Below, piece after piece: positions 25,186 through 25,691 of a DNA stretch of 64,000 bases (position 1 is the first letter of the stretch; each line of letters opens with the position of its first letter). The notes under the pieces are model-generated. The model was given only the letters and a program-made list of their open reading frames with translations, was not told the DNA's origin and made no database searches. The stretch comes from a virus (lineage: Duplodnaviria > Caudoviricetes), in IMG/VR virus record IMGVR_UViG_3300032093_000005. One strand, 5' to 3'. A program made the translations under genes and the position numbers.

Positions 25186-25611
25186 ATGGATTGGCAATAT
25201 AATGGAGAAGTCTTTACCGATGTTCCCAAAGGGATGGAAGGGTTTGTTTATATAATTACGAATCTTACGAACAATAAAAAATACATTGGTAAAAAACATT
25301 TCTGGACAAGACAAAAGAACAAAAAAACAGGAAGAAGAAAGACCGAAGAGTCTGATTGGAAAAACTACTTCGGATCTTGTGATGAACTTAATGAAGATGT
25401 AAAGAAATTAGGTAGAGAACATTTTCTTCGTGAAATCCTCTACCTATGTCCTCATAAGAAATCTATGAGTTATTATGAAACTTATGAACAGTTTAATCGT
25501 AATGTACTGATGAGTGAAGAATATTATAATACAAATATTGGTGGAACCTTTTATATGAGCGAATCTGAAAGAATTTATGGCATCGTTCTTAAGTCTTCTA
25601 AGATTAGCTAA
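25186..25611 (+). CDS. GIY-YIG nuclease
   Basis: FVYIITNLTNNKKYIGKK, YYE, YYNTNI; late promoter CTAAATA 25161-25167 in the loop of TTTGACT/AGTCAAA. Confidence 0.85.
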   Translation: MDWQYNGEVFTDVPKGMEGFVYIITNLTNNKKYIGKKHFWTRQKNKKTGRRKTEESDWKNYFGSCDELNEDVKKLGREHFLREILYLCPHKKSMSYYETYEQFNRNVLMSEEYYNTNIGGTFYMSESERIYGIVLKSSKIS

Positions 25612-25691
25612 AGCCTCATCTTCAACCGGGACAAAGGTAGTCTAGACAAAAAAAGGGGACTTGTCAAGCCCCCTTTGAAGATGTTATAATG
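25608..25691. promoter_or_regulatory. Bidirectional sigma70 promoter element (copy B) overlapping a terminator
   Basis: - strand TTGACA-17-TAGACT; + strand TTGTCA-18-TATAAT; homologous to 63627-63710. Confidence 0.7.

Follow-up and report, generated by a model that had tools for sequence, protein, structure and literature searches.

What would two outward-facing promoters be doing at a place where at least one of them has nothing to encode? T4-like cyanophages kill a large share of marine and lake picocyanobacteria, and their early gene control is known mostly by motif prediction. In the 64,000-nt stretch of viral DNA analyzed here (IMG/VR record IMGVR_UViG_3300032093_000005; hereafter the window), a repeat of ~85 bp is found both upstream of gp55, which encodes the late sigma factor, and between the converging genes for a GIY-YIG nuclease and a 486-aa protein. 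Each copy carries promoter-like arms on both strands, so that the gp55 promoter has as its partner a conserved promoter lacking a gene to drive. A preliminary description of the window had read the repeat as the basis of a timing circuit of small antisense RNAs.

The interpretation that we favor, though with some reservation, is that a regulatory cassette conserved in T4-like cyanophages is present here in two copies. Two host-type (sigma-70/SigA) early promoters would stand back to back over one palindromic -35 region, with the forward arm followed by a hairpin and a leader, and the RNA of the orphan arm would be antisense and would dampen late genes early in infection.

Two copies of a putative bidirectional promoter cassette

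The repeat itself was recovered, but not in the register in which it had been described. The reverse complement of 25608-25691 matches 63627-63710 at only 22/84 positions; a shift of one base, to 25607-25690, yields 61/84 identities in an ungapped alignment. The runner-up 84-mer on either strand of the window reaches 40/84. Two sub-motifs of the repeat occur exactly twice in the window against an expectation of 0-0.1, and they occur twice over the whole 96.5-kb contig as well. The four-arm promoter geometry proposed for the two copies was borne out at the -35 and -10 coordinates listed in Table 1, as was the gene layout around them, with the GIY-YIG gene on the plus strand and the 486-aa gene, gp55 and the Sm-like gene on the minus strand.

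Table 1. Elements of the two cassette copies and the genes that flank them, in window coordinates.
Feature	Coordinates	Strand	Remarks
Cassette copy 1	25607..25690	forward arm on -	between the late-type 486-aa gene and the inverted GIY-YIG gene
Copy 1 forward -35 box, TTGACA	25662..25667	-	overlaps the reverse -35 box within the palindrome CTTGACAAG
Copy 1 forward -10 box, TAGACT	25639..25644	-	17-bp spacer; predicted start near 25632 (-)
Copy 1 reverse -35 box, TTGTCA	25661..25666	+	18 bp before TATAAT (25685-25690), with TG
Copy 1 reverse extended -10 box, TGTTATAAT	25682..25690	+	predicted start near 25697 (+), antisense to the 486-aa gene
Copy 1 mini-hairpin, ACC/GGT, loop with TTTGT	25625..25638	-	directly 3' of the -10 box; covariation
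Copy 1 purine-rich leader, GTTGAAGATGAG	25615..25626	-	conserved
Copy 1 intrinsic terminator hairpin, -35 box in loop	25652..25676	-	terminator scan, fold, covariation
SegE-type GIY-YIG nuclease gene, 141 aa	25186..25611	+	inverted relative to its neighbors; Pfam PF19835 (7.5e-39)
486-aa gene	25695..27155	-	function unassigned; TATAAATA upstream at 27186-27193
Cassette copy 2	63627..63710	forward arm on +	between gp55 and the Sm-like gene
Copy 2 forward arm, TTGACA (63650-63655)-17-TAGACT (63673-63678)	63650..63678	+	predicted start near 63685 (+)
Copy 2 mini-hairpin (AGG...CC) and leader, TTTGTCTCCGTTGAAGATGAG	63679..63702	+	covariation
Copy 2 reverse arm, TTGTCA (63656-63651)-18-TATAAT (63632-63627), with TG	63627..63656	-	predicted start near 63620 (-); candidate early promoter of gp55-gp47-gp46
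gp55, late sigma factor	63079..63594	-	phrog_234 (6.9e-65); Pfam Sigma70_r2
Sm-like gene	63706..64000	-	phrog_471; 135 aa in the full contig; uvsW next upstream; predicted antisense target of the copy 2 forward arm

When scored against the consensus hexamers, with a spacing of 17 ± 1 bp or an extended -10 box (TGn), the forward arms of both copies reach 10/12 and the reverse arms 11/12 with TG. The start sites of all arms were predicted from the usual 7-nt distance after the -10 box. A scan of 24500-27500 for consensus promoters returned 5 promoter-like sites, fewer than the 8.8 found in shuffled sequence, and consensus matching by itself is therefore given little weight; the case for promoters rests on conservation. 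Neither of the two sites, nor any of 16 related loci, matched an Rfam family.

Conservation among cyanophages

A motif search across cyanophages, as proposed in the preliminary description, found the core of the cassette (TTGACA-17-TAGACT plus the conserved transcript start) in at least 119 IMG/VR contigs, and the repeat is thus not a private duplication of this genome. CTTGACA lay outside the search pattern, and it is nevertheless kept in ~110 copies exactly 17 bp upstream. These results come from pattern scans, used in place of BLAST, which with the 60-nt core retrieved 9 phage records only and was too insensitive. In a set of 80 cyanomyovirus gp55 loci, fetched by the gp55 protein alone and so blind to the motif, the forward arm was present upstream of gp55 in 76. 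Its -10 hexamer varies in these loci at positions 3-5 alone (TAGACT, TAGAAT, TACAAT), with T1, A2 and T6 kept. The architecture of the gp55 site also occurs in Syn9, P-SSM2, S-SKS1 and S-SRM01, where the Sm-like and uvsW neighbors of the cassette are annotated.

Of the gp55-type copies, 31/33 retain the reverse arm, as do 17/20 unique inverted-nuclease copies, compared with 3/26 helicase-type copies; this distribution suggests that the arm is lost where it is unneeded and retained at the inverted nuclease. T1, A2 and T6 of the reverse -10 box are likewise preserved in the inverted-nuclease loci. With these frequencies, both arms resemble genuine promoters under selection, in agreement with the earlier proposal.

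The number of copies differs between genomes, with 2 in the 96.5-kb contig, 3 in S-SKS1, 3-4 in S-SRM01 and 1 each in Syn9 and P-SSM2; the multiple copies in some lineages, set against the single ones in Syn9 and P-SSM2, suggest that the gp55 copy was duplicated. Some copies adjoin accessory genes (2OG oxygenases, HNH, GIY-YIG), and the two main sites are syntenic and stable.

The cassette and its neighbors at 25.66 kb

Orthologous copy 1 cassettes were found in 44 of 47 related loci. On the minus strand this copy holds an intrinsic terminator that the preliminary description had overlooked, consisting of an 11-bp stem, a 3-nt loop and a U7 tract (-15.1 kcal/mol, z -2.46). The U7 (25648-25654, plus-strand numbering) doubles as part of the promoter spacer. 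All four consensus pairs (4/4) show compensatory changes, with both sides altered in 4-8 of 32 sequences. Copy 2 lacks the terminator stem. Since the terminator is built around its -35 box, copy 1 would end transcripts of the 486-aa gene.

The 141-aa nuclease consists of the GIY-YIG domain alone. Of 49 related loci, 47 have its gene, in inverted orientation at 38 of them and in direct orientation at 9; the other two are truncated or only weakly related. The inverted arrangement holds over nuclease identities of 69-98%. A recent insertion of an inverted homing endonuclease would have made the antisense layout accidental, and this possibility was rejected in view of the gene's presence in 47 of the 49 loci and the persistence of its inverted form at protein identities as low as 69%. 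The sporadic presence and absence expected of a free-standing homing endonuclease was not seen for the GIY-YIG gene in the 49 loci. The label of late genes given earlier to the nuclease and the 486-aa gene fits the motifs before them: TATAAATA precedes the 486-aa gene, and the late-type motif CTAAATA (25161-25167) precedes the nuclease gene. In 22 unique upstream regions, (T/C)CTAAATA is invariant 18-25 nt before the nuclease ATG.

At gp55, the forward arm has an antisense-type layout, in which a promoter enters a gene from its 3' end and has no sense ORF of its own; no plus-strand ORF was found downstream of it. Sense genes do occur downstream of the copy 1 forward arm, beyond the nuclease gene. 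The terminator scan found no minus-strand terminators between 25630 and 24500, so that read-through into the downstream genes is expected, and the copy 1 forward arm may serve simply to transcribe the small-protein, peptidase and lysozyme genes located there.

The leader and the mini-hairpin

The predicted transcript of the forward arm starts with a conserved, purine-rich sequence, GTTGAAGA... The mini-hairpin around this start covaries, CC occurring with GG in 53/54 copies and GG with CC in 41/49 copies; this covariation was also put through a permutation test. The 5' arm of the mini-hairpin is upstream of the predicted start, and the small covarying hairpin right 3' of the -10 box is therefore left unaccounted for by the back-to-back promoter model.

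The identical promoter and leader are also found in sense orientation before SF2 helicase, 2OG-Fe(II) oxygenase, HNH endonuclease and direct-orientation nuclease genes, and because sense genes share them the leader is not antisense-specific. The direct-orientation copies face a sense ORF with its ATG at +54, which neither copy in the window does. Two further candidate roles for the leader were rejected. Pairing of the leader with a downstream segment is possible in the window copy (GTTGAAGATG with CATCTTCAAC), but it had no support across 72 loci, in which the best leader-complementary run had a mean length of 8.25 nt, compared with 7.5 nt in shuffled sequence, and fell at varying positions. 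As for a mini-ORF within the leader (ATG-AGN-NNN-stop), only some copies have one, and the ATG itself is lacking in many.

A proposed function and its alternatives

In the interpretation that we favor, the reverse arm at the gp55 site (extended -10 box, TGnTATAAT) would be the promoter from which the late-sigma operon gp55-gp47-gp46 is transcribed early, and the forward arm would produce a long untranslated RNA running antisense into the Sm-like and uvsW genes. As the -35 boxes overlap, the cassette is probably occupied by one polymerase at a time. Copy 1, at 25.66 kb, stands behind a late-type gene and has a Rho-independent terminator formed around its -35 box, with the stem arms flanking the box and the U-tract serving as spacer; to our knowledge, the cyanobacterial hosts of these phages lack Rho. 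Early in infection, the forward arm at this site would drive antisense RNA through the late-type nuclease gene and onward into the small-protein, peptidase and lysozyme genes, and the reverse arm would send antisense RNA into the 486-aa gene. By interference or duplex formation, such RNA may damp premature late-gene expression. Comparison of the loci indicates that the antisense layout of the arms pointed out in the preliminary description is real and evolutionarily stable at both sites. Metatranscriptome contigs (holding 5-7% of words) aligned to 24800-26200 cover 24802-24930 and 25683-26046 at 90-97% identity, leave both the cassette and the nuclease gene uncovered, and show neither strand nor ends; at this identity they derive from relatives.

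The antisense layout is also the starting point of the circuit put forward in the preliminary description, in which small antisense RNAs sharing a 5' sequence would arise from the TAGACT arms and link gp55 expression in time to the silencing of toxic late genes. The late-type motifs of the flanking genes would suit such a circuit, as would the means that both nuclease orientations have to avoid early translation and the precedent of CfrI in S-PM2, an antisense RNA over a homing-endonuclease gene (described in PMC2984593). However, the common 5' sequence equally heads the sense transcripts of helicase, oxygenase, HNH and direct-orientation nuclease genes, and the two sites are linked by promoter type alone. 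No conserved intrinsic terminator that could delimit a small RNA was found within 1.3 kb of the forward arm in 61 loci, where 9 forward-strand and 7 control-strand sites were counted at no fixed position. A discrete small RNA from this arm was rejected for this reason, the claim that the shared 5' sequence defines a gp55-coupled circuit is unsupported, and we regard the circuit as a whole as quite improbable. Alternatively, only one arm might matter at each site, namely the gp55 promoter and, at 25.66 kb, the terminator with a restart promoter. The other arms would then be passengers, by-products of the palindromic -35 box and of whole-cassette copying, as in mobile modules of the PeSL (promoter-early stem-loop) type that serve mainly recombination. 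As described in PMC4122927 and PMC2839356, PeSLs join a terminator to an early promoter in one module and mediate shuffling, and the multiple copies in S-SKS1 and S-SRM01 compared with the single ones in Syn9 and P-SSM2, together with the accessory genes beside some copies, are what such modules might leave behind. This explanation is nonetheless unlikely given that the gp55-site forward arm, which has no sense gene, persists in 76 of 80 diverse loci with T1, A2, T6 and the leader, and given how unevenly the reverse arm is kept between inverted-nuclease and helicase-type copies.

A role outside RNA regulation was also considered. The orphan forward arm could be a replication origin similar to oriF, oriG and oriE of T4, its purine-rich untranslated RNA forming an R-loop in an A+T-rich stretch and priming the leading strand; the hairpin and purine-rich leader would favor the hybrid, and late-made UvsW would later remove the R-loops and switch the origins off. 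The arm is without an ORF and lies beside uvsW in all cyanomyoviruses examined, purines make up 72% of the leader at +7..+20, A+T reaches 78% further on, at +42..+72, against a window average of 62%, and a function at the DNA or hybrid level would accommodate a hairpin that spans the start site. On the other hand, the A+T-rich tract coincides with the end of the Sm-like gene that codes for a lysine-rich segment, and the sense copies would serve perfectly well as promoters of mRNA, which makes an origin rather unlikely. The block downstream of TAGACT might also be a stabilizing or processing hairpin in the 3'-UTR of the converging gene instead of a leader. At the gp55 copies, the inverted-nuclease copies and the S-SRM01 copy at 10.9 kb, the block does begin ~10 nt or less from the converging stop codon, and the mini-hairpin would be complete in the opposite-strand RNA. 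The block and its covarying stem are, however, equally kept in helicase-type and direct-nuclease copies, where the converging gene is absent, and the distance of the block is fixed to the -10 box, not to the stop codon. The conservation in copies without a converging gene excludes the alternative named in the preliminary description, in which the block acts only as a 3'-UTR signal, and a 3'-UTR element of any kind appears highly improbable.

Relation to known phage elements

The closest known relatives of the cassette are the PeSLs of T4-like phages (Arbiol 2010, PMC2839356; Comeau 2014, PMC4122927). These were described from coliphages, a Yersinia phage and vibriophages (PMC2839356, PMC4122927), and a study of S-PM2 did not find the PeSL density (PMC4503421). 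Like the cassette, PeSLs combine a compact terminator-like stem-loop with a near-consensus sigma-70 early promoter, are repeated in the genome, adjoin accessory genes and have a lineage-specific consensus. The PeSL stem-loop stands just upstream of its promoter, whereas in copy 1 of the cassette the -35 box lies between the two stem arms and the spacer is formed by the U-tract. The 3' end of a PeSL is a Shine-Dalgarno sequence with a start codon, while neither copy in the window faces a sense ORF start; the cassette further differs in being bidirectional and in its conserved hairpin and leader. The cassette is a nested, bidirectional and new form of PeSL-like early-promoter/terminator cassette. 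Its compact nesting of a terminator in a promoter might also find use in the synthetic biology of cyanobacteria.

In S-PM2 and Syn9 (reviewed in PMC2984593), early promoters of the host-like sigma-70 type are predicted, to be read by unmodified host polymerase, and the absence from cyanomyoviruses of alt, mod, motA and asiA, whose products reprogram polymerase in T4, implies that their early genes depend on host-type promoters. In what was consulted of this literature, there is no description of a conserved partner facing outward from the gp55 promoter, of a palindromic -35 box used by two arms, or of the leader and the hairpin. For antisense RNA, there is the precedent of CfrI of S-PM2, a mapped antisense RNA that is ~225 nt long and connects psbA with F-CphI (Millard 2010, as cited by PMC2984593 and PMC5931967). 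CfrI resembles the RNA proposed here in being encoded by a T4-like cyanophage and lying opposite an endonuclease gene, and it differs in that it has been mapped, while the antisense RNA of the cassette is a prediction, belongs to a different locus, where the gene codes for a protein with a GIY-YIG domain, and has no terminator for a short RNA. If the RNA of the orphan arm is a functional antisense RNA, it could represent a general device to restrain uvsW and late genes, or to throttle gp55.

Divergent transcription has parallels elsewhere. Warman et al. reportedly described in 2021 that bidirectional bacterial promoters arise from sequence symmetry, with a symmetric -10 region shared and starts ~18 bp apart. 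The cassette is alike in its divergent transcription, but shares the -35 box and has predicted starts ~65 bp apart. In T4 there is a precedent under the name of 'anti-late RNA', and a literature search under that name returned no match.

We know of no cyanophage counterpart of T4 oriF, oriG or oriE that has been located, and if the orphan arm primes replication, it would place the origins of T4-like cyanophages. The minimal origins of T4 are ~100 bp long, consist of a promoter and an A+T-rich unwinding element and lie in late-gene regions; oriE uses an early promoter, and UvsW unwinds origin R-loops (PMC3016281). The cassette would have in common with oriF, oriG and oriE its length of ~100 bp, the promoter with a downstream A+T-rich stretch, here also coding sequence, the untranslated transcript, the late-gene setting and the link to UvsW. 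It departs from oriF and oriG, which use MotA-dependent middle promoters, in its host-type arms. Irrespective of the role of the orphan arm, the cassette is a concrete and testable element upstream of the late sigma gene in nearly all sampled cyanomyoviruses; if the RNA of neither arm acts, it would be a well-conserved early promoter family, useful to annotation and otherwise ordinary.

The relatives with a direct-orientation nuclease gene suggest how premature translation could be avoided when the gene is transcribed in sense. In these, the early leader folds the nuclease ATG into a hairpin (z -3.0), with GATAAATA just upstream of the stem, and this start-codon hairpin is, as predicted by folding, a second way to leave the nuclease untranslated from early RNA. 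T4 confines translation of its intron and free-standing endonucleases and of lysozyme to late times by hairpins that sequester the start codon, together with an internal late promoter. The leader of the direct-orientation relatives, with GATAAATA, resembles these hairpins; the nuclease gene of the window differs in being inverted and in having a CTAAATA motif of its own.

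A repeated, predicted bidirectional promoter cassette

The reverse complement of copy 1, which MAFFT also aligned with copy 2, matched it without gaps at 61 of 84 positions, and the best other 84-mer on either strand of the window reached at most 40/84. The ~85-bp repeat claimed in the preliminary description is therefore real, although the register stated there was one base off. Two conserved sub-motifs each occurred exactly twice in the window (0-0.1 expected), with no further occurrence in the complete 96.5-kb viral contig, and the promoter-like hexamers and spacings described earlier were confirmed at both copies. 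The window is a fragment of a T4-like cyanomyovirus from fresh water (Table). We regard the cassette as a new variant of a known element type, with functional steps predicted from sequence; the observation of the repeat is confirmed and its interpretation as an early antisense or sRNA timing circuit is partly supported.

Table. Coordinates of features in the window and in related loci (L numbers, own numbering)
Feature	Position	Strand	Remarks
Cassette copy 1	25607-25690
Cassette copy 2	63627-63710
SegE-type GIY-YIG protein gene	25186-25611	+	flanks copy 1
486-aa protein gene	25695-27155	-	flanks copy 1
gp55	63079-63594	-	then gp47; flanks copy 2
Sm-like protein gene	from 63706	-	then uvsW; flanks copy 2
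Leader GTTGAAGATG	63691-63704
Leader partner CATCTTCAAC	63748-63762
Copy 1 leader partner CATCTTCAA	25677-25685
CTAAATA late-type motif	25104-25110	-
CTAAATA late-type motif	25161-25167	+
Lysozyme-domain protein gene	23482-24150	-
Peptidase C39-like protein gene	24249-24920	-
wcaG RNA	7297-7394	-	Rfam, 98 bits
abiF RNA motif	15255-15291	-	Rfam, 49 bits
Nine tRNA genes	between 8232 and 40269	-	Rfam
Start-codon hairpin, direct-type nuclease	L003:1455-1538	-	also class B copies
Helicase-type copy	L009:1440-1620	-	also S-SKS1 ~169.8 kb and ~26 IMG/VR copies
Further bidirectional copy	L008:1440-1620	-	S-SRM01 ~10.9 kb
Forward arm in Syn9	DQ149023.2, 123686-123733	-

The cassette family

In S-SKS1 and S-SRM01, the intergenic region ahead of gp55 aligned with the window copies, as did additional sites in each genome. 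An exact-pattern scan of IMG/VR for the -10 box, TTTGT and TTGAAGA, with the -35 box left out of the pattern, returned at least 119 contigs and at least 110 distinct flanks, so the search across cyanophages proposed earlier finds the cassette recurring as a family. Among the matches listed, CTTGACA stood exactly 17 bp upstream in nearly all distinct flanks; because it holds this fixed distance though absent from the pattern, promoter and leader form one unit. In class A copies, which separate gp55 from the Sm-like gene, the forward arm points antisense into the Sm-like gene; class C copies, including copy 1, face the 3' end of an inverted GIY-YIG gene. The forward arm is in sense in class B (before a direct-orientation GIY-YIG gene), in class D (before an SF2 DNA helicase gene) and before 2OG-Fe(II) oxygenase, HNH endonuclease and small genes. 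The shared 5' sequence, previously taken as a mark of antisense RNA, thus also stands at the head of predicted sense transcripts from ordinary early genes; it belongs to the promoter family and does not mark an antisense system.

Helicase-type copies carry a conserved 100-170-nt leader that includes AGACACTTTAAGAACCGTC, with a hairpin and U-run ahead of the helicase start; it could be an attenuator or structured 5' UTR, and it matched no Rfam family. In the further S-SRM01 copy, a hypothetical gene converges on the forward arm and has its stop codon right next to it, while a glutaredoxin gene lies ahead of the reverse arm (TTGACA-17-TATGAT).

Conservation of the two arms

In an unbiased sample of 80 loci fetched by gp55 protein alone, 76 had an outward TTGAC-N16-18-TAnAnT arm and a TGT-containing leader upstream of gp55. 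Changes in its -10 hexamer were confined to positions 3-5 (TAGACT, TAGAAT, TACAAT), the pattern that would be expected of a working -10 box. The arm is also present in Syn9, P-SSM2 and S-SKS1, while P-HM2 keeps TTGACA-17-TACACT with a diverged leader. No same-strand ORF lies downstream of the arm at the gp55 site; that so well-conserved a promoter should have no gene to express is the best argument for a function of the "antisense arm". The discrete sRNA proposed earlier found no counterpart, as no conserved intrinsic terminator occurred within 1.3 kb downstream of the arm (61 loci; 9 on the forward versus 7 on the control strand), and nothing beyond promoter type links the two sites into a gp55-coupled circuit. 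Transcription from the forward arm of copy 1 would reach the small-protein, peptidase and lysozyme genes without encountering a minus-strand terminator on the way, so this arm may also, or only, serve these.

The copy 2 leader is complementary to a segment ~50 nt downstream, inside the end of the Sm-like coding sequence (VEDA), whereas the copy 1 leader has its partner at the opposite side of the cassette (Table). This pairing was not general across 72 loci.

The reverse arm, counted as intact when TTGTCA was followed after 16-20 bp by TGnTAnnAT, was intact in 31/33 gp55-type copies, where it would have to be the promoter of gp55. It was intact in 4/4 plus 17/20 inverted-nuclease copies, 6/13 direct-nuclease copies and just 3/26 helicase-type copies. 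Its loss where unneeded and retention behind the 486-aa gene speak against a mere passenger there.

Hairpins within the cassette

On the minus strand of copy 1, directly after the 486-aa gene stop codon, a G+C-rich hairpin with an 11-bp stem, followed by U7, holds the -35 box in its loop (-15.1 kcal/mol, z -2.46). This feature, overlooked in the preliminary description, has the form of a textbook intrinsic terminator, and its U-tract is also the promoter spacer. Compensatory double changes were found at 4/4 consensus stem pairs in 32 related copies, with variants such as GGGGGC/GTCCCC, GGGGGT/ACCCCC and GCACC/GGTGC; the copy 2 fold had no such stem.

A second, 2-5-bp stem directly follows the -10 box, its loop containing TTGT. 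CC was paired with GG in 53/54 copies and GG with CC in 41/49, and the unbiased gp55 set added CG:CG and GC:GC pairings and stems up to 5 bp. In that set the mean Watson-Crick stem length (2.93) and the share of stems of at least 3 bp (69%) both exceeded all 1000 permutations (maxima 2.69 and 62%). The predicted start, the usual 7 nt past the -10 box, is the invariant loop G, so RNA from the forward promoter would not carry the 5' arm of the mini-hairpin. The mini-hairpin may act within an RNA-DNA hybrid, or in DNA that is single-stranded while the promoter complex is open or scrunched. The stem is also kept in copies without a converging gene and is thus not simply the 3'-UTR hairpin of an opposite gene, which excludes a 3'-UTR signal as a general explanation of the conserved block.

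Relation to known elements

The closest described elements are PeSL (promoter-early stem-loop) cassettes of T4-like coliphages, Yersinia phages and Vibrio phages (PMC2839356, PMC4122927), likewise composites of terminator and early promoter. However, two of the features that define PeSLs are absent: the stem surrounds the -35 box here and precedes it in PeSLs, and the window copies end without a Shine-Dalgarno sequence or start codon. The cassette adds bidirectionality, the conserved leader and the hairpin. The conservation data make it less likely that unneeded arms are by-products of PeSL-like copying. Host-like early promoters of S-PM2 and Syn9 are known, as is the CfrI antisense RNA (PMC2984593); in the literature consulted, we found no description of this gp55-linked divergent promoter pair.

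The most interesting rival is that the orphan forward arm belongs to a T4-type replication origin. T4 origins span ~100 bp and combine a promoter, which in oriE is an early one, with an A+T-rich unwinding element; they are located among late genes, and their R-loops are removed by UvsW, which is made late (PMC3016281). An orphan promoter beside uvsW, whose leader is 72% purine and is followed at +42..+72 by a tract of 78% A+T, would fit this scheme, but the match is circumstantial and the tract doubles as coding sequence.

The nuclease locus

The 486-aa protein was used to retrieve 49 loci. In 47 of these, the big protein was followed by the cassette, then the GIY-YIG gene, the small protein and the peptidase, and none lacked the nuclease gene. 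The nuclease was inverted in 38 of the 47 (69-98% identical to that of the window) and direct in 9, the latter of a 43%-identical type, as in S-SKS1. A recent backward insertion of a homing endonuclease was rejected, since the gene is fixed at the locus and the inverted form is conserved to this degree. This SegE-type gene belongs to PHROG 447, and annotations often misname it "NAD synthetase". It has a fixed place at the locus (L149-L197), one type always inverted and the other always direct. Its 141-153-aa proteins have no DNA-binding domain, and it does not behave like a mobile homing endonuclease.

In the inverted type, (T/C)CTAAATA always lies 18-25 nt ahead of the ATG, and TATAAATA, enriched in the window (9 versus 3.5 expected, all coding strand), stands before the 486-aa gene. 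Because of these upstream motifs, the "late" labels given to both genes seem reasonable. Where the gene is direct, GATAAATA lies in the early leader and is followed by a hairpin CTCATA...TATGAG over the nuclease start codon (z -3.0). In T4, such a design allows endonucleases and lysozyme to be translated from late transcripts only, and by analogy the leader appears to be a T4-like device for late-only translation. Both orientations would thus avoid making nuclease from early RNA, which is consistent with the proposal that the nuclease is kept silent early; antisense RNA as the agent is not established by this.

The small-protein and nuclease genes diverge from an 84-bp region in which the two CTAAATA late-type motifs point outward. 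Just 3 nt separate the minus-strand motif from the ATG of the small protein, so the mRNA of this protein may lack a leader, or translation may in fact begin at a start codon further downstream. The lysozyme-domain and peptidase C39-like proteins have near-identical N-terminal regions of ~45 aa (DLHNFF.FYD..N.NHV.AVQWLEDNLP), which points to a targeting or anchoring module shared by two lysis-type enzymes.
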